DNA of 64,000 nucleotides from a virus. Location: UHGV virus genome UHGV-0209617. One strand, written 5' to 3'. A model generated the notes under the pieces. It was not told the DNA's origin. It searched no databases and saw nothing but the letters and a program-made list of their open reading frames with translations. The position numbers and the translations under genes were made by a program. This document shows, piece after piece, positions 9,289 to 61,721 of the stretch; position 1 is the first letter of the stretch; each line of letters starts with the position of its first letter.

Positions 9289-9830
9289 GAAGCAGATGAT
9301 ATTGGTGTTAGTTGGTTCCAATGGCTCTGGAAAAAGTACTATTACCAAATTCTTTGATGTTGTTGGCGAATATACTAATGCTGATGATATTGTAGCAGCC
9401 ACTGGAATGGATAATCTTGCTGCAGCACGAATGGCTGATGAAAAATGTATTCTGCTATAAAAGAAAAACGGGATTTTACCTTTGAAACGGTACTATCTTC
9501 AGAGTATAAGTTTGATATATTAAATAAGGCTAAAGCAGAGGGTATTTTATTAAGTGTGTATTTGTATTGACCGTGAATCCCTACATAAATGTAGCTAGAG
9601 TGCAGATGCGTGTAGCTAATGGTGGTCATTTTGTGGAAAAAGATAAGATTTTATCAAGATACTATAAATCATTGACAAATATAAAGAAACTGTTAGAAAT
9701 ATGTGATATTATGCATGTTTATGATAATACCGTTACCCCAACGCGTATCATACGAAAGCATAAGGATGATATTTCTACTTTTGCTAGTGAAATATGGAGC
9801 GAAGAGCAGATTCTAAAACTTATGTATTAA
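9278..9830 (+). pseudogene. Zeta-toxin-like P-loop kinase, disrupted by two frameshifts
   Basis: Walker A VLVGSNGSGKST in frame 2 (ORF 9257-9460); middle segment EKRDFTFETVLSSEYKFDILNKAKAEG only in frame 1; C-terminal RVANGGHFVEKDKILSRYYKSL in frame 0 (ORF 9567-9830); together about 190 aa. Confidence 0.5.
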
Positions 9831-9872
9831 GATGGTTTATGTGTTTGTATTTGTGTAAAAATAAGTGAGGAT

Positions 9873-10142
9873 ATGATTTATCCATTTATGACATTGGAAG
9901 ATGATACAGAAATTACTAATTCTGAAATGCAGGCAAATGGTGAGGTAAAGGTGTATGTTGAAACACCAGATGAAAAGGATTGTTTCCATAGTATGATATG
10001 TTATCTTCCTGATTATCGTGTTGAAAAGGTAGAGGGGTATTCAGAAGAAGTGGAAAAGTATCTTGATTTTATTCGCAAGGCTGCGAATCTTATCCTTGAA
10101 TTTTCTCAGGAAGGTGGATTTAACCATGCCAAAGCTGTTTAA
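9873..10142 (+). CDS. Hypothetical small acidic protein
   Basis: 89 aa ORF, no motif recognised. Confidence 0.3.
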   Translation: MIYPFMTLEDDTEITNSEMQANGEVKVYVETPDEKDCFHSMICYLPDYRVEKVEGYSEEVEKYLDFIRKAANLILEFSQEGGFNHAKAV

Positions 10143-10470
10143 GATTGGTTGCCTCATATTCCAGATACATTAAGAAACATTATGCGTATTTTTAGCAATG
10201 GGGCAGAATAGGGCATAACGGGGCATTTTAGAGCATTTCAGGAAAGGAAAATGGCATGAATAAGATTTTGTTTATCTGCCACGGCAGCGTATAAGGATAG
10301 AGTCGATAAACCGCATGGCTACGGGACTTTTGCAACGGTTAAATGATATTCATATACTGAAAGCATACCGTTTATGCTGGGTCTTGTATATTCTATTGTG
10401 AAACGGTTACATTGAATTATTAAACGATACATATACATTAACGATTTAATCGTTAAATAATACCTTTGAG

Positions 10471-10496
10471 ACTCCCGGCTGTGCCTGGGAGTTTTT
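10471..10496 (+). terminator. Intrinsic terminator
   Basis: Hairpin ACTCCCGG..CCTGGGAGT followed by TTTTT. Confidence 0.5.
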
Positions 10497-10565
10497 CAAT
10501 ATAGGAGAAGGCGAATTTACTTCATAGGAAATGTTCTTATAGCTGTTGCCGTTGTACTATTGACT

Positions 10566-10574
10566 TGCTATAAT
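10566..10574 (+). promoter_or_regulatory. Extended -10 element (TGcTATAAT) upstream of Sel1/DUF6273-like gene
   Basis: TGCTATAAT at 10566-10574; only a weak -35 (TTGCCG) about 19 nt upstream. Confidence 0.3.
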
Positions 10575-10622
10575 TTAATAAATGACAATATTAATTTAAT
10601 GAAGATACGGAGATTTGAGCAT

Positions 10623-11441
10623 ATGGAAAAGAATCTTGATGAGGCTGTTAAATGGTTGCGTAAGGCAGCAGAGCTTGGGCATAAGGATGCAATGGTAAAG
10701 CTGGGCGAGCTACTCAGTGGTACAGAGGAGCCATTGACAAAACTATTGGAAAAATCATATATGGAAGGCTATGCAGATGGCAAAAATGGCAAGGCTAATA
10801 AATATTTCAAGGAAGCATATATTAAATCTACTATGGATAGAGCAGGTTTTGTTAATGTTAAGGTTGGAGATATAATCACATTTGGCAATTATTGGCAGGA
10901 TAAAGATAAGTCAGCTGGTAAGCAGCCAGTAGAGTGGCAGGTGCTTGATGTCAAGGATGGCAAGGCATTAGTTATTAGTAAATATGGTTTAATAAATCAT
11001 AAATATAATAAAGAATGGACGGATGTTACATGGGAAACATGTACCTTGAGAAAATGGCTGAATGATACCTTTATTAAGGATATTTTCTCCGCAGAGGAAA
11101 TGAAGGCTGTTATGTTATCAGATGTTAGTGCAGATAAAAATCCTAATTATAACACAAATCAGGGAAATGACACTAAGGATAAATTGTTCCTGCTGAGTAT
11201 AAAGGAAGTGGAGCAATATTTTGTTAGTGATGAAAAAAGACTGTGTAAGCCAACAGAATATGCAGTTAACAACGGAGCTTATGAGAATAACCGTGGGCAT
11301 AGTTGGTGGTGGCTACGCTCTGCTGGTGGCTATAGTAGCGATGCGGCGTATGTGGTCAGTTATGGCTGCGTCTACTACAGTGGCCGTAGTGTGTTCAGCG
11401 ACGATGGTTCTGTGCGCCCAGCTTTTTGGCTAAATCTTTAG
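10623..11441 (+). CDS. Sel1-like repeat plus DUF6273-like C-terminal domain protein
   Basis: ATG 10623 preceded by GGAG; N-terminus AVKWLRKAAELGHKDAMVKLGELL is Sel1/TPR-like; C-terminus WWWLRSAGGYSSDAAYVVSYGCVYYSGRSVFSDDGSVRPAFWL resembles DUF6273. Confidence 0.5.
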   Translation: MEKNLDEAVKWLRKAAELGHKDAMVKLGELLSGTEEPLTKLLEKSYMEGYADGKNGKANKYFKEAYIKSTMDRAGFVNVKVGDIITFGNYWQDKDKSAGKQPVEWQVLDVKDGKALVISKYGLINHKYNKEWTDVTWETCTLRKWLNDTFIKDIFSAEEMKAVMLSDVSADKNPNYNTNQGNDTKDKLFLLSIKEVEQYFVSDEKRLCKPTEYAVNNGAYENNRGHSWWWLRSAGGYSSDAAYVVSYGCVYYSGRSVFSDDGSVRPAFWLNL

Positions 11442-12350
11442 TCTAAAATCTTCAAATCTATGAATACGATAAGTGAAAAGTAGAAAAATAAAACAGGTAA
11501 TTTACCTGCGAAGCAGGGGTGAAATTTTTTAGGAGTATAGGCTGTGAAAAAAAGGTTAGCGAAACTTTTGTAAGCAGATTGCAGAATTTAAGTTTATCAG
11601 CCATAGAAAATCTGTATAGAGCCAATGATATATTTGTGCAGCGTGGCAATTTGAGTGCCTTGGAACTGACAGGCACTTTTAATGATAAATAGTAATGTTA
11701 AATAGCTGTATTATAAAGACAGCTAGAAACAATTTTTCAGCGGGGTAACATACTCAATAGGAAGCAAGAGTATGTTGCTCCGCTGATTTTTTAGTTTAGG
11801 TTGAGTATGTAGAACTGCTATTGGCAGGGGTGGGTATGTAGGGACAATGTGGTTCTGAAATAGTGAACATATCGAAGCTGAAAGGTACGTGGATATTGAG
11901 GTTAGGTAGATATGTTCAGTGCGAGCAGGTTGAATAGATATGAAAAGAAAATGCCCCAGACCGTGGTATTCCACTTCCTACAATAATTCAGTATGGCAGT
12001 GCCGTAACCGCTATTCAGCCGTGAAATGCAAGACCATGAATATCTATGACAAGCTGCTGTTTATGTCCTGCACGATGTGGCAAAGGACATACGGACAGCA
12101 ATAGTGGAATTCGCAGCAGATGTGGTCAGTGCTGACAGGCTGGCAGCCATTGAACGCTACATAGAGAACTTTGAAAGCATGAGTGCCTGGAAGATGCTTT
12201 CCAATGCAGATGACCTGTAATTCGTGATGAACATGGTTCTGGTCAAAACGGATAGGCGCATTGAGGTGATATGGTTGGACGGTGGTGTGGATGGATATGA
12301 AATTCCGAGGTATACACCGAAGGGGGGATAGAATGATTAGGTGTCTTTTT
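11442..12350. other. About 0.9 kb with no convincing gene; probable decayed coding remnants
   Basis: Only short, frame-switching ORFs; one 52-codon stretch (..VLHDVAKDIRTAIVEFAADVVSADRLAAIERYIENFESMSAWKML) looks protein-like but lacks a start. Confidence 0.3.
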
Positions 12351-12382
12351 AGCATTGTAAAAGTAATTACATTTACAATGCT
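12351..12382. repeat. 32 bp near-perfect palindrome, candidate operator
   Basis: AGCATTGTAAAAGTAATTACATTTACAATGCT has 11 bp perfect arms around a palindromic core; TTGTAAT and GTAATTACA recur at 12403-12425, overlapping the predicted -35. Confidence 0.7.
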
Positions 12383-12414
12383 AAAAAGATGTAGAAAATA
12401 TTTTGTAATAGGGA

Positions 12415-12443
12415 TTGTAATTACAGCTTAAATATGCTAAAAT
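12415..12443 (+). promoter_or_regulatory. Predicted sigma-A promoter of the RM operon
   Basis: -35 TTGTAA (12415-12420), 17 nt spacer, extended -10 TGcTAAAAT (12435-12443). Confidence 0.5.
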
Positions 12444-12688
12444 ATAAGATGAAAGACTATATGGAAATGGAGGAACTACAGTTGAGCGAAATGAAAAGAA
12501 AAATGCCTATGGAACATTTGAATATTGGTGAGTTCAACCGTGGGCAATCTTCAAAACTAATCCGTAACTTGGTGGAAAAAGATAATGCTGCATTTATACA
12601 AAAAAATGGGAAGCCAATAGCCGTTGTTATCTCCTATGAACGATACGAGAGACTGCTTGAGTCTGGCATTGATATCAATGAGTTCTGA
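12434..12688 (+). CDS. Phd/YefM-like small protein (antitoxin fold), putative regulator; start codon uncertain
   Basis: IGEFNRGQSSKLIRNLVEKDNAAFIQKNGKPIAVVISYERYERLLE matches the Phd/YefM pattern; no toxin gene follows; the listed ATG at 12434 overlaps the predicted -10, so the real start is probably TTG 12482 (GGAGG 8 nt upstream) or ATG 12491. Confidence 0.55.
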   Translation: MLKYKMKDYMEMEELQLSEMKRKMPMEHLNIGEFNRGQSSKLIRNLVEKDNAAFIQKNGKPIAVVISYERYERLLESGIDINEF

Positions 12689-12720
12689 GTATTCAAAACA
12701 TGATTAAGGAGGTAACGGAG

Positions 12721-14355
12721 ATGGTTGCGAAAAATTATGGTGTTGTTTACACACCGAATAGACTGGCTGAGTTCGCAGCAGAACTTTTATATAGAGAGGC
12801 AGCAGAAACTAATACAGAAATAAAGTCGGTATTGGATCCTGCGTGTGGCGAATGCGCATTGCTATGTGCTGCAAAGAAATATTTGAATGGTAATGTGAAA
12901 TATTTGGGAATTGATGTCGATAAAGAAGCAATAATGAATGTTGAGGATGATTTTGAAATTCTTTATAATGATTCAATTCTTCCGCGAAATGTAAAAAAAC
13001 AGACGGCAGAATATTGGAAGAGCAAGATGCCAGTAATATCTGCTATAATTGCAAATCCACCGTGGAGTTCCGAAAAAATATATGTGCGAGAAGAATTGCA
13101 GAGTGCCGGTTTCTCGTTGACCACAGGACAATATGATAGCTTTGTGCTATTTATTGAGTTGGCATATAATCTGCTTGATGATGGAGGATACTTTTCGTTT
13201 ATTATCCCCGATTCGTTATTTGATGCACAAAACGAAAAACTAAGAAGATTTTTGACTGAAAAGATGCAAATCAAAGTGATTGCCAGACTTGGAGAGAAGA
13301 TTTTTGAAGAAGTGAATAGAGCAACTACTGTTATTGTTTGCAGAAAAGAAAAGCCAGTCAAAGATTCTGTCACCCACTGTTTCAGACTTACTACGGAAGA
13401 AAGAAGAAAGTTTTTGAATTCGAATCAGAGTTTGTTAAACTTTTACAACGAAGATGTGCATGATGTGTTGCAGGGGCGATTTGCTGAAAACGCTGCCTGT
13501 AACTTTGACGTTGATACGCGCACTGATGAAGAGGCATTGTTGGCTAAAATTAAGAAGCAGTCTATAAGTTGGGAGGATATATTCATTTTTGGTCGAGGTG
13601 TTGAGATATCCAAAACAGGAAAGGTCGTATTTTGTCCTTCGTGTGGTTATGCCCAAGGGTATAAAAAATCACAAATGGCTGAAGGAAAAAAAGAATGTAC
13701 GAACTGTGGCAGTGAGATATCGGTTACTACGGCAAGTGTTCAAAATGTTATTTCACAAAGTCAAACGCCACAGACTGTTCAGATATATGTTGGAGAGAAT
13801 GTTCGGAGATATGGAATAACAGGAGAATGCTATATCAAACCCAACATTCCCGGAATCAATTATAAAAATCGTGCGATGTACAACCCACCAAAACTGTTGG
13901 TGAGAAAGACTGGACTTGGAATATATGCATCGATTGATTATACGGGAAGCATGACAAGTCAGGCTGTATATATTTTGAAATTTAAAAACAGTCAACATAA
14001 GGCTCCGTTGGAATATTATCTGGCATTGCTTAACTCACGAGTGGTCTACTATTTTTATTTGAAAGTATATGGAGAAAATGAATGGAAGTCCCATCCGTAC
14101 TTTACGAAACAGATTATTTATTCTCTGCCTATTAGAGAATATGAGGATAGTGAGTTAGATAAACAGATCATTAAAGTGGCATCGGAATTGGCGCATAAAT
14201 ATGAATATGTCAAGGATGTTCAGCTTGAGAAGTTGGTAATGAAAAAGTATGGTCTGTCAGAGACCGAAAGCAATATGGTTTATGGTGAGATGAATCGTCT
14301 GCCTGACTTGAGTGCGATTAACAATATGAAAGTTGAGGTGGAAGCGAATGTATAG
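12721..14355 (+). CDS. N6-adenine DNA methyltransferase, gamma class (Eco57I-like), with TaqI-like C-terminal target-recognition region and internal C4 zinc ribbon
   Basis: ATG 12721 with AAGGAGG 8 nt upstream; motifs GVVYTP, LDPACGECALL (AdoMet binding), IIANPPWSS (NPPW catalytic); internal CPSCGY..CTNCG. Confidence 0.85.
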   Translation: MVAKNYGVVYTPNRLAEFAAELLYREAAETNTEIKSVLDPACGECALLCAAKKYLNGNVKYLGIDVDKEAIMNVEDDFEILYNDSILPRNVKKQTAEYWKSKMPVISAIIANPPWSSEKIYVREELQSAGFSLTTGQYDSFVLFIELAYNLLDDGGYFSFIIPDSLFDAQNEKLRRFLTEKMQIKVIARLGEKIFEEVNRATTVIVCRKEKPVKDSVTHCFRLTTEERRKFLNSNQSLLNFYNEDVHDVLQGRFAENAACNFDVDTRTDEEALLAKIKKQSISWEDIFIFGRGVEISKTGKVVFCPSCGYAQGYKKSQMAEGKKECTNCGSEISVTTASVQNVISQSQTPQTVQIYVGENVRRYGITGECYIKPNIPGINYKNRAMYNPPKLLVRKTGLGIYASIDYTGSMTSQAVYILKFKNSQHKAPLEYYLALLNSRVVYYFYLKVYGENEWKSHPYFTKQIIYSLPIREYEDSELDKQIIKVASELAHKYEYVKDVQLEKLVMKKYGLSETESNMVYGEMNRLPDLSAINNMKVEVEANV

Positions 14356-15406
14356 ATATATAGGAAACAAATCAAAGCTGACTCCATACATTCTTGATAG
14401 GGTGGAACAGCTTATTGGAAAAACAGGAATTGTTGCTGACATTATGGCTGGAACAGGAACTGTGGCATTAGAATTGAGAAAAGCAGGTTATTCGGTTATC
14501 GCATCTGATGTAATGACCTATTCGTACCATCATTTGATGGTTAATCTTTGCTTAGATTCAGCTCCTTCTTTTTCTGGGCTTGTGAATCATGGAGCAATAG
14601 GCAAGAATGAGGTGGATGCATATGGTGCAATCCTGACTTATTTAAATTGCATTGAACCCAAAGAAGGTTTTTTCTTCAAGGAATTTTCTCCGGGTGGAAC
14701 ACCGCAGAATGGTTGCGACCCGAGAAAATATTTCACTACGGAAAATGCAAAGAAAATTGATGCGATTAGAGAAAAAATAAATGAGTGGATTGATAATGGA
14801 TATGTGAGCAAAGCTGAAGAATCGCTTTTAAAACATACTCTTATTATGGCAGTAAACGAGGTTGCCAATATATCTGGAACTTACGGATATTTTTTGGCTG
14901 ATTTCAAAAAGAATGCCAATGCACAGATTGATTTAAAACCTGTGGAATTTTGTTCTGTGAATTCAACTGGTCACATGGTAAAATTGGGATTTGCTGAAAA
15001 TTTAGCTGCAACAATTACAGTTGATTTGTGCTACATCGACCCTCCGTATATGAAGAGACAGTATGCTGCGAATTATCATATTCTGGAAACCATTGCACGA
15101 GGAGATTTCCCTGATGCTGTTGGTAAAAGTGGCTTGCGTGACTGGTGGGAGCAGCACTCTAAATTGTGTACCAAAACACGAGGATTACAATCGTTTGAAA
15201 AGATATTAGGTGATATGCATTGCCCGAAATTTCTGATTAGCTACAGTGAGGATGGTTTGTTTACGCTGGGGCAATTAGAAGAATGTTTTAGCAAGTTTGG
15301 AACTGTTGACGTTCAAGAAATTGATTACAATCGATTTAGAAGCAATGATAGCAAGTTGCCTAAAAAACTGAAGGAATATTTGATTTCTATAGAAAGGCAG
15401 GTATAA
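14348..15406 (+). CDS. DNA adenine methyltransferase, Dam-like (D12 class)
   Basis: ATG 14348 with AGGTGG upstream, overlapping the preceding stop by 8 nt; motifs RYIGNKSKL and DPPY. Confidence 0.8.
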   Translation: MYRYIGNKSKLTPYILDRVEQLIGKTGIVADIMAGTGTVALELRKAGYSVIASDVMTYSYHHLMVNLCLDSAPSFSGLVNHGAIGKNEVDAYGAILTYLNCIEPKEGFFFKEFSPGGTPQNGCDPRKYFTTENAKKIDAIREKINEWIDNGYVSKAEESLLKHTLIMAVNEVANISGTYGYFLADFKKNANAQIDLKPVEFCSVNSTGHMVKLGFAENLAATITVDLCYIDPPYMKRQYAANYHILETIARGDFPDAVGKSGLRDWWEQHSKLCTKTRGLQSFEKILGDMHCPKFLISYSEDGLFTLGQLEECFSKFGTVDVQEIDYNRFRSNDSKLPKKLKEYLISIERQV

Positions 15407-15410
15407 GTGA

Positions 15411-17081
15411 ATGGAGTGCATTGAAAGAATATTTTACAGAAAGATTAATCCTTCTGATTTCAAAAAGTTGTATGATATTGACAAACCAGAAGGTGGCGGT
15501 GGTCAGACATACTTGGAAGCCGCTGGTATTTCAAATGAAAAAATCGTTGATTTCCTTTCCTATGCGGAGGTTACAAACAGTCCTTTGCCAGATGAAACAA
15601 GGTCTGTTTATACATTCAATGCCTATGTTTTGGGCGATTCAAAGGGTAAATGTTCGTTTGTAGAATTTGCACCTCGCAAAGGAAGAAATAACTATCGTAT
15701 AAGCCGTCAGAACATGAAATATAAACATCCGGCATGGAGTTTGGATAATGGATTTCCCGAACCATCAAAAGGTGATGATGGCGAATACACATCTGCAGGC
15801 GATTTTGTGGGAATCATTGATAATCTTGTTATTCTTATCATAAGAACTACAAATCGGCGTTATTATGCAGGTTTTGTAAATATAGCGACAATGCCAGAGA
15901 ACTGGCCACACAATATTGGCTTAGAGGGCATTTTTAGTGGTGAACGCAGAGATGTACTAAAAATGGATGCGTATAAACTACAGTTTGTTAATGATGCCTG
16001 TAATCCATTCGGTGATTATGTCCCAACAATCGAAGAATGTAATCGAGCGACTACTGGTTGCAATGTGCTTTTGTACGGAGTTCCCGGAGCAGGAAAGAGT
16101 TGGACAATTGAACACGAATATTGTGCCGATGAAGGGTGTATGGAGCGATTGGTTTTCCATCCGGATTATATGTATTCGGATTTCGTTGGACAAATTTTGC
16201 CTGTAGTAAGGGACGATGACAAGGTTCGTTATGAGTTTACGCCGGGTCCGTTTACCAAATTATTAAAAAAAGCATATTGGAATACAGAACAGTCTTTTTA
16301 CCTTATAATAGAAGAAATAAATCGTGGTAATGCACCAGCGATATTCGGTGAAATATTTCAGCTTTTGGATAGAAAAGATGAAGACGAAATAGATGAAAAT
16401 AGGGAGATTCTCTACAAAAAAGGCACAAGTGAGTATGGAATAACAAATGCCAATATTGCACGAATCGTTTATGGCGATGAAAACCATAAGGTTCGAATTC
16501 CTGCAAATATGTCTATTTTGGGTACAATGAATACTTCTGACCAAAATGTTTTTACATTAGACACAGCATTTCAGAGAAGATGGATTATGAGAATGATTCC
16601 GAATTCATTTGATAACCATAAGTTCGCAGACAAGAAGATTTTGGATACTGATATTTCCTGGAGACAGTTCTGTGAAGCAATTAATGAGGAAATTTTGCGT
16701 AGAAACAACATCACATCTTCTGAGGATAAGCGACTTGGGGCATATTTTATCTCGGCTTCGGATTTGGAGATGAAACCAATCACAGACGGGATGAGCGAAA
16801 AAGAAAAAATCCAAGTGGAGCATAGCAACAGCAGATTTGCAGAAAAAGTATTGAAATATTTATGGGATGATGCTTTCAAATTTTCCCATCAAGATACATT
16901 TAACACAAGACAGTTTGGTAGTCTTGAAAAAGTTATCGAAGGCTTTATGAATCCTGCCAAGCCTAAAAATGAGCGTTTTCGTGTATTCAATGAGAACCTT
17001 CGTAAAATGATTTTGGATGGAGTAACAGCAGAATCAAACGAGGTTTCTGATGATGACAGCGAAGGCTCACAGGAATCTTAA
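15411..17081 (+). CDS. McrB-like GTPase subunit (LlaJI R1-like) with N-terminal DNA-recognition domain
   Basis: Walker A LLYGVPGAGKSW; McrB signature IIEEINRGNAPAIFGEIFQLLDR; TMNTSDQNVFTLDTAFQRRW; starts 4 nt after the second methyltransferase. Confidence 0.85.
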   Translation: MECIERIFYRKINPSDFKKLYDIDKPEGGGGQTYLEAAGISNEKIVDFLSYAEVTNSPLPDETRSVYTFNAYVLGDSKGKCSFVEFAPRKGRNNYRISRQNMKYKHPAWSLDNGFPEPSKGDDGEYTSAGDFVGIIDNLVILIIRTTNRRYYAGFVNIATMPENWPHNIGLEGIFSGERRDVLKMDAYKLQFVNDACNPFGDYVPTIEECNRATTGCNVLLYGVPGAGKSWTIEHEYCADEGCMERLVFHPDYMYSDFVGQILPVVRDDDKVRYEFTPGPFTKLLKKAYWNTEQSFYLIIEEINRGNAPAIFGEIFQLLDRKDEDEIDENREILYKKGTSEYGITNANIARIVYGDENHKVRIPANMSILGTMNTSDQNVFTLDTAFQRRWIMRMIPNSFDNHKFADKKILDTDISWRQFCEAINEEILRRNNITSSEDKRLGAYFISASDLEMKPITDGMSEKEKIQVEHSNSRFAEKVLKYLWDDAFKFSHQDTFNTRQFGSLEKVIEGFMNPAKPKNERFRVFNENLRKMILDGVTAESNEVSDDDSEGSQES

Positions 17082-17097
17082 AGCGAGGTGAGCGACA

Positions 17098-18378
17098 TTG
17101 GATTTAGGCTTAAACTTAAAAGTTAAATGTCATGTGAATAAAAATGGTGATGGCGATAGGTTTGTCGGGATTAAGGCTGATGCTAATCAAGCAATGGTCT
17201 ATTTTCCAATGGGGTATCGCCTGCCAGACAATGAAGAAGATATTAGGGATGATATTCTAAAATTGATTTCTGTATTAGCTGAGTTTACGGATTCAAAAGA
17301 CAAGGTATTGGCTATGCAGAAATTTGAAGCACCACAGTCTGTGAATTTTCCAATCAATGCCTATATGAATATTATCCGATACTATTTGGAACAACGTTCA
17401 TATTACACAGAAAAGGATCCTATTCTAAAGACGAGTGACAGAGGAAAAATCGACTTTGCAGCATCTTTGCGTAGAAATGTTAGCTTTTTTCAAGAAGATG
17501 GAACTCCGTTTTTTGATAAATATACAGTAAAAGGGTCAACTCCTAATGATAAAAATTTAATAACTATGATTCACAAATACTGTGTGCATGAAAGTTTTGC
17601 TCAGATGGGTTGGCTGTTTATGCCGGATGTCCCACAAGATCCACATATTGAACGAAACATTCCGCTTTTCCTCAGTGTACTGAAGAAAAAATTGGCAGTC
17701 ACGCATCTTGAAAAGGATATTCTGCTATTTGAAGCAATGATTTCTATGCTGGAATATTTGGATGAGAAAAGTGACGATAAACAATACTATTTTGGAACAG
17801 ATAGATTTGAATATGTGTGGGAAAAACTGATAGATGCAGTGTTTGGCATAAAAGAAAAGAATGATTATTTTCCACGAACCTCTTGGAAACTAAACTATGG
17901 TGACCAACGAAGAAATTATGCATTAGAGCCGGACACCATAATGCTTTGTAATGGAAAAATCTATGTCATTGATGCAAAGTATTATAGATACGGTGTAACC
18001 GGTACACCTTCGCATTTGCCGGAATCATCATCTATCAACAAGCAGATTACATATGGTGAGTACATATATAATCATAAGAAATTTAAGGATGTATATGGTG
18101 ATGATGTTCCTGTGTATAACGCATTCCTTATGCCGTATAACAAACAGGATAATCCATTTCATATCAATGAGTATTTCGCCAATATTGGTGAGGCTGATAG
18201 TGACTGGAAATATGGCAATCATAATTATGAACGGGTGCAAGGAATTGTAGTTGATATTCGTTTCTTGATGAACAATTACTATGGTTCGCACAAGAGTAAA
18301 ATTATTAAGATGGCGAAGCTCATCGAGGAAGCCCTGCAGGAAAATGCAGATACGCTTCCAGAAGAAAAGACTGAATAA
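17098..18378 (+). CDS. McrC-like PD-(D/E)xK nuclease subunit (LlaJI R2-like)
   Basis: TTG start with GAGGTG 7 nt upstream, 16 nt after the McrB-like gene; IYVIDAKYY matches the McrC-type nuclease motif. Confidence 0.7.
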   Translation: MDLGLNLKVKCHVNKNGDGDRFVGIKADANQAMVYFPMGYRLPDNEEDIRDDILKLISVLAEFTDSKDKVLAMQKFEAPQSVNFPINAYMNIIRYYLEQRSYYTEKDPILKTSDRGKIDFAASLRRNVSFFQEDGTPFFDKYTVKGSTPNDKNLITMIHKYCVHESFAQMGWLFMPDVPQDPHIERNIPLFLSVLKKKLAVTHLEKDILLFEAMISMLEYLDEKSDDKQYYFGTDRFEYVWEKLIDAVFGIKEKNDYFPRTSWKLNYGDQRRNYALEPDTIMLCNGKIYVIDAKYYRYGVTGTPSHLPESSSINKQITYGEYIYNHKKFKDVYGDDVPVYNAFLMPYNKQDNPFHINEYFANIGEADSDWKYGNHNYERVQGIVVDIRFLMNNYYGSHKSKIIKMAKLIEEALQENADTLPEEKTE

Positions 18379-18418
18379 AAAATCCGCAAGCAGTGATTAT
18401 GCTGTTTGCGGATTTTTT
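18377..18418. terminator. Bidirectional intrinsic terminator between convergent genes
   Basis: AAAAAATCCGCAAGCAG..CTGTTTGCGGATTTTTT, about 15 bp stem with one mismatch, A-run and T-run on either side. Confidence 0.6.
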
Positions 18419-19601
18419 ATTTGCCCTTTTGAACTTTGATGCGATGGGAACGTTGATTATTTGCGTTTCTACAGTTACTGCAACAATATTTATTTCTACT
18501 ATTGGATGTCTTTACTAAGAAATATTTATGGCAAGAAGGATTGGCACACTTTCTATATATTTCAGATCCGGGTTTCATGTAGAAAATAGAAAAATATAAT
18601 GCAGAAAGCAATGATGGTGCCTTCCACGACGGTTCCAGTGAATTGGGACTGTAGAAAGGTTTTATACTTCTGGTATTATGATTTATTTCCCCACTTAAAA
18701 CGAGTCGTGCGATAAGAGTAGCAGCCTCTTTTAATGGACTGTTAAATTTGCTGAAATCTGGACTACTATAGTATTCAATGCCGCCCTCGAAAGTTACAGC
18801 TTTTATTACACCAACAGAATGCATATAGTGAAACAGGAATTCAACCATTAGTCGGAGCTTCTTGGATTGAATATTGTTATTCTTGTAAGCAATAGTAACC
18901 TGGCGATACAGCGTATCATTAATTCCAGGATAATCGTATGTAAATGTTTCTCCGTTTGAAATATCATCATATTCATCAGCATTTAATTCATATGAAGGAG
19001 CATAAATCATGTCTTTTACGGTAATAGATTCTGTTTCAGAGGATTGCTGTAGTGAATCGATAGAGGCTTGATTTCTGATGCTATCATGAAATGGATGCCG
19101 ATAGGTTGAATAAGTAATTCGTGCAGTGCCATTAAGCGTAACTTGTGTCCCAAGAAGCAAATACAAAGTTAAATGTAGAATCTGTTCATAATCAAGTGAT
19201 GGTTTTTCCACTGCGGCCATAAGGAGAACTGTAGCCTTTATTCGATTCAAGACTTCTACAAGCGCTACTATATCAATTTCCGTTCCTTCGGGCGAAATAG
19301 GAAGTAGATAACCATGTTCCTCGAAAAAACCAAGGACCTTTTTTACATTGGTTGCCGGAAGCGATATCAGAGAACCGAGAACATTTTTATTTTGAAGTGA
19401 ACCGTGTGGAGTCGTTAAACATAAACCTCGGCTTCCGCTAAAGGCATAATTTATAATTTCATCATTCACGGGATAGACTGTTAATATTTTATGCGCCTGC
19501 CCGTCCGTCTTTAAGACTTCTTCTATTCTAAATGTACATTTTTTGCAACTCAAAGAAAAATAATCGTTGCTAAGATTGAAAAAATTGTCTAACTCAGTCA
19601 T
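18417..19601 (-). CDS. Hypothetical protein with C-terminal CGNR-type zinc finger
   Basis: 394 aa; C-terminus CANPSCHKYFLVKTSNSRNKYCCSNCRNANNQRSHR fits the CGNR zinc-finger pattern; N-terminal 330 aa unrecognised. Confidence 0.5.
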   Translation of the reverse strand: MTELDNFFNLSNDYFSLSCKKCTFRIEEVLKTDGQAHKILTVYPVNDEIINYAFSGSRGLCLTTPHGSLQNKNVLGSLISLPATNVKKVLGFFEEHGYLLPISPEGTEIDIVALVEVLNRIKATVLLMAAVEKPSLDYEQILHLTLYLLLGTQVTLNGTARITYSTYRHPFHDSIRNQASIDSLQQSSETESITVKDMIYAPSYELNADEYDDISNGETFTYDYPGINDTLYRQVTIAYKNNNIQSKKLRLMVEFLFHYMHSVGVIKAVTFEGGIEYYSSPDFSKFNSPLKEAATLIARLVLSGEINHNTRSIKPFYSPNSLEPSWKAPSLLSALYFSIFYMKPGSEIYRKCANPSCHKYFLVKTSNSRNKYCCSNCRNANNQRSHRIKVQKGK

Positions 19602-33861: not shown

Positions 33862-33906
33862 TATGCTAGTGCAGAATTGTACTGGCTATTTTTTATGGAG
33901 GCAGCA

Positions 33907-35184
33907 ATGGCGAATACAGAACGATTTGAAAAAGTACATATAGACAAGCTGGTGCCCTATGCCAGAAATGCCAGGACACACAGCAAGGAGCAGGTCATGG
34001 AACTGAGAGCGTCCTTAAGGGAGTTCGGATTCGTTACTCCCGTCCTGGTAGATGAAAACTATACAATCCTCGCGGGGCACGGACGTGTCAGGGCTGCAAA
34101 GGAAGAAGGCATTACCGAGGTGCCATGTGTATTTGCGAACCAGCTGACGGATGCACAGAAGAAAGCCTATATCCTAGCAGATAACCGTCTTGCGCTTAAT
34201 GCGGGATGGGATAACGAGATGCTGGCAGTTGAACTGGCTGATCTGCAGGGCGAGGCTTTTGATATCGGCCTTTTGGGATTTGATGACAAGGAGCTGGAGA
34301 AGCTCCTTGGCAATAACGATGAGGCAGAGGATGATGATTTCGATGTTGATGCCGAACTTCAAAAACCATGCTTCAGCCGCCCAGGAGATATCTGGAAACT
34401 CGGCAGGCACAAGGTTATCTGTGGTGACAGCACTGACCCGAATGTTTACACTTCTCTTCTTGGAGATGTGAAAGTAAACCTAGTCTGCACTGACCCGCCG
34501 TATTTTGTAGCCTTCGAGAATAAATCAGGGAAAATCCAGAATGACAATCTGGGTGATGAGGAAGGATATAAATTCCTCAAATCCGCTATGGATAATTTCC
34601 ATAATGCTATGGCAAAGGATGCCAGCATTTATGTGTTTTATGCTACATCCAAAGCCAGGGTATTCCATGATGCTTTTGAGGATGCAGGGTTTAAGGTTGG
34701 AGCAGGACTTGTCTGGAAGAAGGATCGCCTGGTGCTGACCCGCACGGATTGGAAGTACATCCATGAGCCAATTATCTTCGGCTGGCGTAAGGACGGAAAG
34801 CATATCTGGTACGGAGATCAGAAGCAGACTACTGTATTTGAGTTTTCCCGTATCAAGGATTCTGGCAAGGATGGATACGGTCATCCTACCAGCAAGCCTG
34901 TACCTCTCATTGCTTATCTCATTAAGCAGTGCACCCAGACTAACGGTATTGTGCTGGATGGCTTCTTGGGTTCTGCCAGCACCCTTATTGCCTGTGAGCA
35001 GCTTGAAAGAAACTGTTATGGCGTAGAGCTTGAGCCGAAGTTCGTGGATGTGGCTGTAAACAGATACATCGCAGCCCATGATGGCTCCGCCCAGGATGTT
35101 GTCCTTATCCGAGATGGAAAAGAATACAGCTACGAAGAGTCCCAAGCGATGATGGAGGATAGTGCTGAAAATGACGAACAATAA
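33907..35184 (+). CDS. ParB-like nuclease domain fused to DNA methyltransferase (beta class, N4/N6)
   Basis: ATG 33907 with GGAGG upstream; ParB-like N-terminus ILAGHGRVRAAKEEG; methyltransferase motifs CTDPPY and GHPTSKP. Confidence 0.8.
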   Translation: MANTERFEKVHIDKLVPYARNARTHSKEQVMELRASLREFGFVTPVLVDENYTILAGHGRVRAAKEEGITEVPCVFANQLTDAQKKAYILADNRLALNAGWDNEMLAVELADLQGEAFDIGLLGFDDKELEKLLGNNDEAEDDDFDVDAELQKPCFSRPGDIWKLGRHKVICGDSTDPNVYTSLLGDVKVNLVCTDPPYFVAFENKSGKIQNDNLGDEEGYKFLKSAMDNFHNAMAKDASIYVFYATSKARVFHDAFEDAGFKVGAGLVWKKDRLVLTRTDWKYIHEPIIFGWRKDGKHIWYGDQKQTTVFEFSRIKDSGKDGYGHPTSKPVPLIAYLIKQCTQTNGIVLDGFLGSASTLIACEQLERNCYGVELEPKFVDVAVNRYIAAHDGSAQDVVLIRDGKEYSYEESQAMMEDSAENDEQ

Positions 35185-60285: not shown

Positions 60286-60867
60286 ATGAATGACATTGAA
60301 AAGCTTGTTGATGAGTCAGGAATGATTACAACTAGAGATATAGTGAAAAATAATCAGTCAAAAGTAGAATTTTACAATTACCTGAGAAAAAATGATTTTG
60401 AACAAGTATCGCGTGGTATATATGCTTCTAAGGATGCGTGGGTAGACCCATTATTGATTGCGCATATGAGATGTCCTAAAGCGGTGATCTCTCATGATGT
60501 GGCACTTCATTATTATGGCTTGGTTGATAGAGAGCCTTCAGCTCCAACGCTTACTATTTATTCTGGATACAACACAAGCAGGTTAAAAGAAGCAGGGTAC
60601 AAGGTGTTTTTCGTGAAGAAGGAATACCTTGATGCTGGCAAAGAAGAGGTTGTAAATTTTGATGGCAACATCATTCCTATGTATAACCTTGAAAGAACGA
60701 TGTGTGACCTTGTCAGAAACAGAAGCAGCTTTGAGATTCAAGATTTCAATGCAGCTATAAAAGCGTATGCCAGAAAAAAGGAAAAGAATCTTACAAGGCT
60801 ATTTGAATATGCGAAAATGCTTAGGGTGGAAAAATTGATGCGGTCATATATGGAGGTGCTTTTGTAA
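60286..60867 (+). CDS. abiEi: AbiEi-like antitoxin/transcriptional regulator
   Basis: ATG 60286 with GGAGGTGA 5 nt upstream; ~190 aa directly upstream of a nucleotidyltransferase-fold toxin gene; called from size, position and fold resemblance. Confidence 0.65.
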   Translation: MNDIEKLVDESGMITTRDIVKNNQSKVEFYNYLRKNDFEQVSRGIYASKDAWVDPLLIAHMRCPKAVISHDVALHYYGLVDREPSAPTLTIYSGYNTSRLKEAGYKVFFVKKEYLDAGKEEVVNFDGNIIPMYNLERTMCDLVRNRSSFEIQDFNAAIKAYARKKEKNLTRLFEYAKMLRVEKLMRSYMEVLL

Positions 60868-61721
60868 TGATCTTATCAGCTGCACAGGCAAGAGGCAGGA
60901 TTAAGAATATTGTGGCAAAAAATGGTGCGGACCCAAGACTGCTTATGAGAATTTATATGATGGAGAGATTTTTGGAACGAGTATCCCTTTCTGCATACAA
61001 GGATAATTTCATCATTAAGGGCGGAATGCTTATAACATCATTGGTTGGTATTTCCATGCGGTCAACTATGGATATTGACACAACTGTAAAAGGCCAGGAT
61101 GTAAGCATGGAAAATGCACAGCGTATTGTTAAAGAAATTGCTGACATTCAGATTGATGATGGGGTTTCTTTTGTGATTAAAGATGTAGAAAACATAATGG
61201 ATGAGATGGAATATCCAGGAATCAAATTTCACTTGGAAGTGTTATTAGACAAAATGGTTACGCCAATAAAGATTGATGTTTCTACGGGCGATGCAATTAC
61301 ACCCAGAGCGATTGAATATAATTACAAGCTTATGCTTGAAGATAGAGAAATCGGGCTGTGGAGCTATAATCTGGAAACAATCCTTGGGGAAAAATTACAG
61401 ACGATACTTGTACGTGAACGTGCAAACACCAGAATGAGAGATTTCTATGATATATGTGTATTGGTAGAAATGTATGACAGTAAGATAAATACTGTCAATT
61501 TCAAAGCAGCATATGAGGCGACCTGTAGAAAAAGAGGGTCATTACACTTATTTGGTAATGAAGGAAAAATACTGGATATAATAGCTGGTGAAAGTAAAAT
61601 GATTGATAGATGGACAAATTATCAGAAGAAGTTTTCTTATGCATCTGATATCAGTTTTGAGAAAGCTATTCAGTGTGCAAAGGGGTTAATTTCATTCTTG
61701 AAAAATAGTACCGGAAAATAA
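60867..61721 (+). CDS. abiEii: AbiEii-like nucleotidyltransferase toxin
   Basis: 284 aa; resembles AbiEii/AbiGii as remembered; start overlaps the AbiEi stop. Confidence 0.7.
   Translation: MILSAAQARGRIKNIVAKNGADPRLLMRIYMMERFLERVSLSAYKDNFIIKGGMLITSLVGISMRSTMDIDTTVKGQDVSMENAQRIVKEIADIQIDDGVSFVIKDVENIMDEMEYPGIKFHLEVLLDKMVTPIKIDVSTGDAITPRAIEYNYKLMLEDREIGLWSYNLETILGEKLQTILVRERANTRMRDFYDICVLVEMYDSKINTVNFKAAYEATCRKRGSLHLFGNEGKILDIIAGESKMIDRWTNYQKKFSYASDISFEKAIQCAKGLISFLKNSTGK

Follow-up and report, generated by a model that had tools for sequence, protein, structure and literature searches.

A Phd/YefM-fold protein with no toxin partner as the probable controller of a phage-carried LlaJI-type restriction-modification operon

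What does a small antitoxin-like gene that has no toxin do at the head of a restriction-modification (RM) operon? The question is raised by a 64,000-nucleotide stretch of the virus genome UHGV-0209617 (referred to below as the window), in which positions 12344-18378 hold what is, by sequence, a five-gene phage-carried LlaJI-type RM operon. A small gene of the Phd/YefM fold is followed there by two methyltransferases (MTases; M1 and M2) and by McrB-like and McrC-like restriction subunits (R1 and R2). A preliminary description of the locus, made from its letters alone, listed these same elements, all of which were found where it had placed them, and proposed that the Phd-like protein acts as the controller in place of a classical controller (C) protein. 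Comparative evidence supports this proposal: neither a toxin nor a toxin-binding tail is found, the gene is conserved as the first gene of RM operons, and its candidate operator overlaps the -35 element. Further support comes from the helix-turn-helix (HTH) regulators that occupy the same slot in related cassettes and from the palindrome not being a general repeat. It is probable that the small protein autoregulates the whole operon by binding operators with the core GTAATTAC, and as judged from these comparisons it is most likely a dedicated RM controller of a new fold class with a broad distribution.

The candidate controller gene lies at 12482-12688 (+) and would encode 68 amino acids (aa). 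The longest open reading frame (ORF) in this place covers 12434-12688. The true start is probably the TTG at 12482, because most homologs have 68 aa and this codon follows a ribosome-binding site (RBS; GGAGG, 12469-12473), whereas the ATG at 12434 precedes the predicted -10 element. The gene is single-copy in the window. Clustered at 90% identity, its homologs fall into 541 groups, most of them from gut Bacillota and most of 68 or 75 aa. The family is narrow, with 86 clusters at 50% identity reaching E<=1e-3 among 1.84 billion representatives. An alignment of 33 members shows a core of about 55 residues, NIxxFxRGQxSKI...KNGKPxAVxISYERYxRL..G.DI. The protein matches PF02604 (PhdYeFM_antitox) with E=1.7e-6 and 28.1 bits, and the NCBIfam model TIGR01552 with 24.5 bits, above its cutoff of 20.8. 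The AlphaFold2 (AF2) model (pLDDT 89) has the topology beta-alpha-beta-beta-alpha. The top 47 Foldseek matches in the PDB are all antitoxins of the Phd/YefM fold, including the complexes of the Phd N-domain with its operator and of YefM with DNA, and TM-scores of 0.7-0.78 are reached only against truncated N-domains. No HTH domain was matched in the protein by Pfam or NCBIfam, and it is absent from PADLOC.

The match to PF02604 stops at position 50 of the 74 in the profile, with 8 residues remaining, and most of the 33 aligned members end a few residues, at most about 10, past the last helix. By the Pfam match, the 33-member alignment and the fold comparison, no C-terminal toxin-binding extension is present in the family. 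Since the fold matches are to N-domains and the family ends just past the fold, the small protein as modelled is the DNA-binding and dimerisation half of an antitoxin, with the toxin-binding tail absent. The search for a toxin partner took in 102 loci, plus 24 viral contigs. In none of the 102 loci is the small gene followed by a toxin-sized ORF, and the next gene is an MTase gene or hsdM in the window and in most loci of both sets. The view that this is a Phd/YefM-fold gene without a toxin partner, put forward in the preliminary description, is thus borne out by the profiles, by AF2 and Foldseek and by the 102 loci. Two other readings, a classical toxin-antitoxin (TA) pair and a remnant antitoxin, were rejected on the same grounds: the tail is absent, the partners are diverse and the operator is conserved. 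The nearest bona fide TA relatives are RelB-like antitoxins with RelE-like toxins in Gordonia phages (about 41% identity, E about 2e-4; for example MH536818.1, 29029-29208). Judged by sequence, the RM leader without a toxin may have its origin among pairs of this kind.

Two candidate operators precede the small gene. The distal one (12344-12389) is a near-perfect palindrome of 46 bp, with 25-nt arms that are 96% complementary, the core GTAATTAC at 12363-12370 and the flanks TTGTAAA/TTTACAA. The 32-bp palindrome first reported at 12351-12382 is real (15 of 16 pairs) and is the inner part of this larger element. Whether it might be a general repeat of the genome, as had been considered, was also checked: the 64-kb window has it once only, against a chance expectation of 0.01 matches. 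The proximal candidate (12403-12425, +) has the form TTGTAAT-N5-TTGTAATTACA, a direct as well as an inverted repeat, with the core GTAATTAC at 12417-12424. A sigma-A-type promoter is predicted at 12415-12443 (+). Its -35 element TTGTAA (12415-12420) lies in the proximal repeat and is separated by a 17-bp spacer from an extended -10 element, TGcTAAAAT (12435-12443); the promoter scores 9 of 12 consensus matches plus the TG, and transcription would start near 12450. The statement that the repeats overlap the -35 therefore holds for the second copy at 12403-12425, but not for the large palindrome, which is found about 50 bp farther upstream than the -35. The TGTAATTACA core resembles TGTACA, the core of the yefM-yoeB operators.

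The operator is conserved with the gene. Counted with at most one mismatch, GTAATTAC occurs in 67 of 81 distinct 247-bp upstream regions as against 11% of 4501 background windows taken from these loci. Its positions are fixed, and the distal palindrome sequence recurs at an equal position in L005, L011, L033, L034 and other loci. The usual layout is a distal AAAAGTAATTAC(T/A)TTTACAA about 120 nt ahead of the start codon and a proximal TTGTAATTACAA, whose left half is the -35 hexamer, followed by a 17-bp spacer and TGnTATAAT. A promoter-like pair was found in 57 of 83 upstream regions. Of these 57 pairs, 34 have TTGTAA as the -35, 44 have the TGn element and 27 have a GTAATTAC core that overlaps the -35 or directly adjoins it. 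The commonest core-to-core spacing is 54 bp, as in the window, followed by 42 bp, and the others are mostly multiples of 6. In a clade of Bacillus-type Type I loci there is one site only, which precedes a TTGAAA -35 by about 20 bp. In two divergent subfamilies other palindromic 8-mers are repeated, namely TTCATGAA at -127 and -67 (L015) and ATCATGAT at -125, -101 and -65 (L017), while 4-6% of background 200-bp windows have repeated palindromic 8-mers. Here the two-site layout seems to be kept with a changed 8-mer, which is suggestive of co-variation between protein and operator.

Which operons does the small gene lead? The scan of related loci was built on a closer alignment of the small-protein family, the diverse 33-member alignment being too divergent. 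With one genome taken per species, 80 loci were obtained and classed by ORF and BLAST comparison with a check against Pfam. The small gene is followed by Type I hsdM-S-R in 45 of them and by a LlaJI-type operon in 17. The rest are 6 contig ends, 2 MTase fragments and 10 other loci, where the gene precedes a decayed hsdM and then resistance genes or insertion sequences, RhuM, WYL with DUF6361 and PLD, a thymidylate-kinase-like (TMPK-like) protein with a B12-radical-SAM protein (two loci), or genes of no known match. Similarly, the 24 viral contigs that carry the small gene include 11 LlaJI-type and 10 Type I operons. The gap between the leader and the next gene ranges from -64 to +48 nt, and the junctions examined leave no apparent room for a promoter between the leader and the RM gene that comes first.

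Leaders that are 77-79% identical to that of the window precede Type I systems in some species and LlaJI-type systems in others, and LlaJI-type operons with the leader carry four different MTase combinations. Close relatives stand before LlaJI-type operons either with the MTases of the window or with N4/N6 and C5 MTases. Among more distant members, one 48% identical to the query leads a Type I hsdM-S-R with an overlapping start, one of 39% identity an HSDR_N_2/N6_Mtase/Eco57I enzyme, one of 46% identity a pair of AAA and S8 protease genes, and one of 26% identity two MTases opposite a McrBC-like pair. The association is found on phages, on elements like integrative and conjugative elements (ICEs) with ParAB, on Bacillus, Lactococcus and Clostridium chromosomes, and on a Corynebacterium phage-plasmid. 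On this phage-plasmid the leader directly ahead of hsdM-S-R is labelled 'type II toxin-antitoxin system antitoxin' in RefSeq, a name that for such leaders is probably a systematic misannotation. The locus in question (L105; NZ_CP008945.1, Corynebacterium atypicum phiCATYP2070I, 390-6872) and L015/L016 are of a high-GC Actinomycetota type in which the leader overlaps the Type I hsdM and an HTH/ImmA pair comes next.

Several single loci deserve mention in their own right. In L033 (6998-11370) the leader stands directly before R1-R2 with no MTase genes, a GmrSD-family gene is divergent upstream and a zf-CGNR gene lies downstream; by its gene content this cassette may be a modification-dependent (Type IV-like) derivative. 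In L065 (7268-9270) and L100 (2248-4255) the leader is followed by genes for a P-loop protein like thymidylate kinase and a B12-binding enzyme of the radical SAM type; together the two may modify DNA or nucleotides or serve in defence. The 46%-identical leader of L019 (6082-10072), which has the GTAATTAC palindrome, precedes an AAA ATPase and an S8 subtilase, a pair which we take to resemble the IetAS defence system. In L101/L102 (6514-10451) the regulator cassette is followed by an hsdM N-terminal remnant of about 50 aa and then by genes for an MFS transporter, APH and an aminoglycoside nucleotidyltransferase. Resistance genes appear, from this arrangement, to have replaced the RM operon behind the promoter of the regulator.

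The regulator and its control region also share their boundaries. When window positions 11800-13400 were compared by blastn with the Type I loci L028, L034 and L040 and with L005, a LlaJI-type locus with MTases other than those of the window, they aligned only from 12346/12354 to 12683/12689. The homology is thus bounded by the left edge of the distal palindrome and the stop codon of the small gene. Because it is limited to this stretch, the operator, the promoter and the regulator gene appear to behave as one recombining unit of about 340 bp.

The leader slot was also viewed from the side of R2, a homolog of which was found on 79 viral contigs, 56 of them with enough upstream sequence. In these 56 LlaJI-type cassettes the slot holds a Phd-like gene in 11, an HTH_17 gene (PF12728, down to 7.6e-18) in 16, a Cro/C1 or Xre HTH gene (HTH_26, HTH_3) in 7, an Mrr_N winged-helix gene in 3 and nothing recognisable in 19. 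As read from these sequences, the slot is an interchangeable place for small DNA-binding proteins, and a swap among DNA-binding families fits a regulator rather than an enzyme subunit or an inhibitor. Outside this set, a Treponema LlaJI-type relative has no leader. Another LlaJI-type relative, on an L. plantarum plasmid (L106; CP140141.1, 2579-7739; R2 53.6% identical), has an HTH gene and an Eco57I-type MTase on the opposite strand, and an 86-aa protein with no family match directly before R1, which may be another type of regulator.

In the model that we prefer, DNA binding, repression and timing by the small protein are what we infer. The first gene would give a dimeric DNA-binding protein of 68 aa whose toxin-neutralising tail was lost or never present. 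This protein would bind the GTAATTAC-core palindromes ahead of its own gene, the distal one of high symmetry and the proximal one in which TTGTAA is the -35, and binding at the proximal site would control the whole operon from a single promoter. When phage DNA enters a naive cell the regulator would be absent and the operon would fire. The accumulating protein would then fill the distal site and next, cooperatively, the phased proximal site, 54 bp or about 5 helical turns away, and with the -35 occluded M and R would be held at a low steady level. M1 and M2 would, by homology, methylate adenines, presumably one per strand of an asymmetric site, and R1 (motor and recognition domain) and R2 (nuclease) would restrict unmodified DNA. 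Recombination would have placed the cassette of about 340 bp before Type I, LlaJI-type and a few other defence operons. As to the mode of regulation, we lean towards repression, because the proximal site is the -35 itself, because many promoters of the family are near-consensus and because Phd/YefM antitoxins autorepress. To our knowledge, all characterised antitoxins of this fold are autorepressors.

The distal site could instead activate, as it does in C proteins, and this is a point against plain repression. A dimer at the distal site would then activate a weak promoter while the protein is at low concentration, and occupancy of the proximal site would repress it once the concentration is high, giving a delayed and bounded burst. 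Such a dual mode is suggested by the imperfect -10 (TAAAAT) and -35 (TTGTAA) of the window, by the single site of the Bacillus-type Type I clade, which is in a typical activator position, and by the combination of a stronger distal and a weaker promoter-proximal site, which resembles the O_L/O_R C-boxes (PMC12707154). We nevertheless hold it to be unlikely. Activation should be unneeded at the many family promoters that are close to TTGTAA-17-TGnTATAAT, and it would give R no delay relative to M, since the regulator stands first in the whole M-M-R-R operon; the autorepression typical of the fold speaks against it as well. Still less probable is that the small protein works as an antitoxin at the protein level, neutralising R1/R2 or HsdR by direct binding, so that the RM system would be a TA-like addiction module. 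RM systems do act as addiction modules (PMC3874152), the fold and the RefSeq label are those of a type II antitoxin, and in L033 the leader directly precedes R1-R2 with no MTase. However, the extension which Phd and YefM use for toxin binding is missing. The downstream partners are also too diverse for specific protein neutralisation to be likely, with the 77-79%-identical leaders preceding enzymes as unrelated as HsdMSR and LlaJI-type systems with four MTase sets. The conserved operator travels along with the leader, and sister cassettes replace it by HTH DNA-binding proteins, not by inhibitors.

Finally, the gene could be a housekeeping regulator of the phage or mobile genetic element, or a decayed TA remnant, that is a mere neighbour of the RM cargo and does not control it. 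The cassette does lie in the accessory or early region of a Phi1207.3-like phage, near further regulators (a zf-CGNR gene and a sigma-70 region 4 protein), and a few loci have non-RM genes downstream. This is the least probable of the three alternatives: the association holds across phage, ICE-like, chromosomal and phage-plasmid backbones, the junctions are as tight as described above, homology at the DNA level extends exactly to the leader's stop codon and no farther, and the 541 homologs are conserved with no toxin in the loci checked. A number of observations count against a dedicated RM controller. The evidence base is computational throughout (anatomy, homology, models and motif counts). 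The PF02604 score is just below the gathering cutoff of 29.8, and the Foldseek E-values are modest (5e-3) though the matches are unanimous. The GTAATTAC core is missing from 14 of the 81 upstream regions, the left arm of the distal palindrome is degenerate in L001, and the co-variation of the operator is based on few loci. Some members lead non-RM cargo (AAA with S8 protease; TMPK-like with radical SAM; WYL with DUF6361 and PLD). About 80% of the LlaJI-type cassettes on viral contigs have no Phd-like leader, and a leader of that kind is therefore dispensable for the enzyme system. With these points counted, we still regard control of the operon by the small protein as the probable reading.

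The dedicated RM regulators known so far are HTH proteins: the C proteins and, since 2025, RptR. A 2025 EcoSal review lists promoter methylation, MTase-fused repressors, antisense RNA and HTH C proteins as regulators of RM systems and names no fold besides HTH (PMC12707154). Like C.PvuII, C.AhdI and C.Esp1396I (PMC12707154), the candidate would be a small dimeric DNA-binding protein encoded inside an RM operon, with a presumed role in establishment and homeostasis. The paired palindromic sites ahead of its own gene, of which the proximal overlaps the -35, match theirs at the sequence level. While C proteins are of the Xre-type HTH, precede the R gene and activate before they repress, the leader has the Phd/YefM fold, precedes the whole M-M-R-R or hsdM-S-R operon and is expected to repress. 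With Phd of phage P1 and YefM it shares the N-terminal fold for dimerisation and DNA binding and the palindromic operators at its own promoter, but it has no C-terminal toxin-binding region and no toxin gene, and RM enzymes lie downstream.

No account of an RM controller with the Phd/YefM fold turned up in literature searches that paired Phd, YefM or prevent-host-death with restriction-modification, with hsdM or with C protein. The nearest is RptR, the RMS-proximal transcriptional regulator of Gammaproteobacteria (PMC12255303, NAR 2025). RptR is likewise a small homodimer whose gene stands at the head of Type I RM or defence-island operons. The short palindromes to which it binds are repeated in its own promoter, and both protein and site are conserved across many genomes (PMC12255303). 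The site is TAGCTA, with conservation across Gammaproteobacteria, and neither Phd nor YefM is mentioned in the paper (PMC12255303); from its discussion and references we take RptR to be an HTH protein. The family described here differs in its Phd/YefM fold, its GTAATTAC core and its occurrence in Bacillota, Actinomycetota and their phages, and it also serves LlaJI-type operons.

The enzymes of the window are LlaJI-type by architecture and by the homology of R1 and R2, and their predicted modification chemistry differs from that of the archetype. M1 (12721-14355, +; RBS AAGGAGG at 12706-12712; alternative ATG at 12700) is a gamma-class N6-adenine MTase with a TaqI_C-like target-recognition domain (Pfam N6_Mtase 2.6e-20, Eco57I 1.1e-16, TaqI_C 5e-14). 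M2 (14348-15406, +; ORF open from 14333) is a D12-class (Dam-like) N6-adenine MTase (MethyltransfD12 3.5e-27). R1 (15411-17081, +) is a McrB-like AAA+ NTPase subunit (AAA_5 1.5e-11; McrB NF008457 2e-16; 1e-18 against McrB structures), and R2 (17098-18378, +) is the LlaJI-family (McrC-like) endonuclease subunit (PF09563 RE_LlaJI 2.1e-28). The ATG of M2 at 14348 overlaps the stop of M1 by 8 nt, the M2-R1 gap is 4 nt, and the R1-R2 gap of 16 nt holds an RBS. Over 96% of its length, R2 shares 49.8% identity with R2.LlaJI of pNP40; its identity to L. plantarum plasmid homologs is 53.6%. The motor of R1 (residues 212-534) is 57% identical to that of R1.LlaJI, and the N-terminal 210 aa or so are unrelated to it. 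PADLOC REase_II models derived from REBASE match R1 (1e-117) and R2 (1.6e-138), and its MTase_II models match M1 and M2 (M2 2e-67). The earlier assignments of a gamma-class and a Dam-like N6-adenine MTase, of the LlaJI-like order M-M-R1-R2 with tight junctions, and of enzymes that group with LlaJI and McrBC all stand on these matches.

The N-terminal part of R1 is presumed to be a family-specific DNA-recognition domain. A profile search of this domain against the PDB gave no match, and its AF2 model, built on an 8-sequence alignment, is unusable (pLDDT 39). It is reported that the N-terminal domain of H. pylori LlaJI.R1 is B3-like with site-specific DNA binding (PMC12707154) and that R1 homologs likewise have a conserved motor and an unrelated N-terminus (PMC1459862). 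The archetype, LlaJI of Lactococcus lactis pNP40 (O'Driscoll et al. 2004-2006; PMC1459862), has the same M-M-R1-R2 order, a McrB-like R1 with a unique N-terminus presumed to read the site, and a PF09563 R2. It differs in having two 5-methylcytosine MTases, in place of the two N6-adenine MTases of the window, and in lacking the leader gene and the GTAATTAC operator that the window has. In pNP40 LlaJI no hidden Phd-like ORF was found (best E 0.18), and no operator beyond one chance site with 1 mismatch. The pNP40 promoter carries GACGC/GCGTC, consistent with the published epigenetic control through promoter GACGC/GCGTC sites, as summarised in PMC11779793, which cites O'Driscoll 2005.

By its gene content the window is a Phi1207.3-like (pro)phage. 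PHROGs matches between 21 and 51 kb include exonuclease, DNA polymerase, primase-helicase, ParB-methyltransferase, large terminase, portal, major head protein and tape measure. The conjugative prophage Phi1207.3 of S. pyogenes carries the LlaJI-like SpyI cassette, and its gene order is published (PMC4260502). The window has the same order of RM cassette, convergent CGNR gene, replication and packaging. SpyI (Phi1207.3/Phi10394.4; PMC4260502) shares the backbone and the cargo site, with an MTase, an AAA_5 R1, a LlaJI-family R2 and the convergent CGNR gene, followed by DNA polymerase, primase and terminase. It differs in its single C5 MTase and in that no Phd-like leader is reported for it (PMC4260502); the small protein has no match in Streptococcus phages. 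On viral contigs of IMG/VR (37-57 kb) the cassette recurs almost unchanged, with 96-97% identity at the protein level. Megablast against GenBank phages found no match to the cassette and only patches of about 70-76% in structural genes, with no close relative. The cassette has a GC content of 37% against 46% for the phage core, and is AT-richer as expected of cargo.

The convergent gene behind the cassette (18417-19601, -) encodes a 394-aa protein with a C-terminal CGNR zinc finger (zf-CGNR, a weak match of 1.4e-3) and corresponds to orf15 of Phi1207.3 (PMC4260502). Among the species loci, R2 is directly followed by a zf-CGNR homolog in 13 of the 17 of LlaJI type, none of the 45 Type I loci has one in that place, and homologs of 30-94% identity are in place in most of the 79 viral LlaJI-type loci. 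It is either a backbone gene of the phage family or an accessory (fifth) component of the cassette. Its co-regulation by the same operator was considered and rejected: a GTAATTAC-like site is present in 2 of 12 upstream regions, which equals the background, and the upstream region in the window lacks the operator. Elsewhere in the window, an AbiEii nucleotidyltransferase toxin (PF08843, 2.8e-37) is encoded at 60867-61721 (+). The stop of the preceding 198-aa ORF (region from 60271) abuts its start; this ORF is probably the AbiEi antitoxin, which would make AbiE a second defence system on the element. At 33877-35184 (+) the phage encodes an orphan DNA MTase with a fused ParB-like N-terminal domain (PHROG 498, 5.6e-168). 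Like orf32 of Phi1207.3, it probably serves anti-restriction self-methylation. Just upstream of the cassette a protein with DUF6273 and Sel1 is encoded at 10560-11441 (+), and the ORFs at 2601-8690 have no Pfam or PHROGs match. The region 1-10500 is AT-rich (35% GC) like the cassette, and because of this likeness the left 18 kb of the window look like an accessory or cargo region.

If the small protein is the controller that it probably is, the finding adds a further class of RM controller, one that has the fold of an antitoxin, is common among Bacillota of gut and soil and among their phages, and serves both Type I and McrBC-like LlaJI-type systems. Hundreds of 'orphan type II antitoxins' annotated beside hsdM or MTase genes would then probably be RM regulators. 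The leader slot offers a clean case of non-orthologous displacement of regulators (Phd-like, HTH_17, Cro/Xre and Mrr_N) in one operon position, which bears on how mobile defence cargo is kept non-toxic in transfer. The defined operator with its GTAATTAC core and the promoter could serve in experiments, and in the engineering of restriction barriers in Clostridia and Lachnospiraceae that are hard to transform. A wider and rather doubtful reading takes the toxin-free Phd/YefM fold as a widespread portable controller of defence operons that is both labile and cross-silencing. In Bacillota and Actinomycetota, the module of about 340 bp would drive the Type I, LlaJI-type and other defence cargo that phages and ICEs carry, and the regulator, by analogy with its antitoxin relatives, may be proteolytically labile. 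If this were true, there would be a burst of RM expression when the cassette enters a naive cell and renewed induction under stress or infection. Through the GTAATTAC operator that they have in common, a resident cassette would silence a newcomer, and the result would be cross-immunity and not the lethal cross-activation of the C-protein type.

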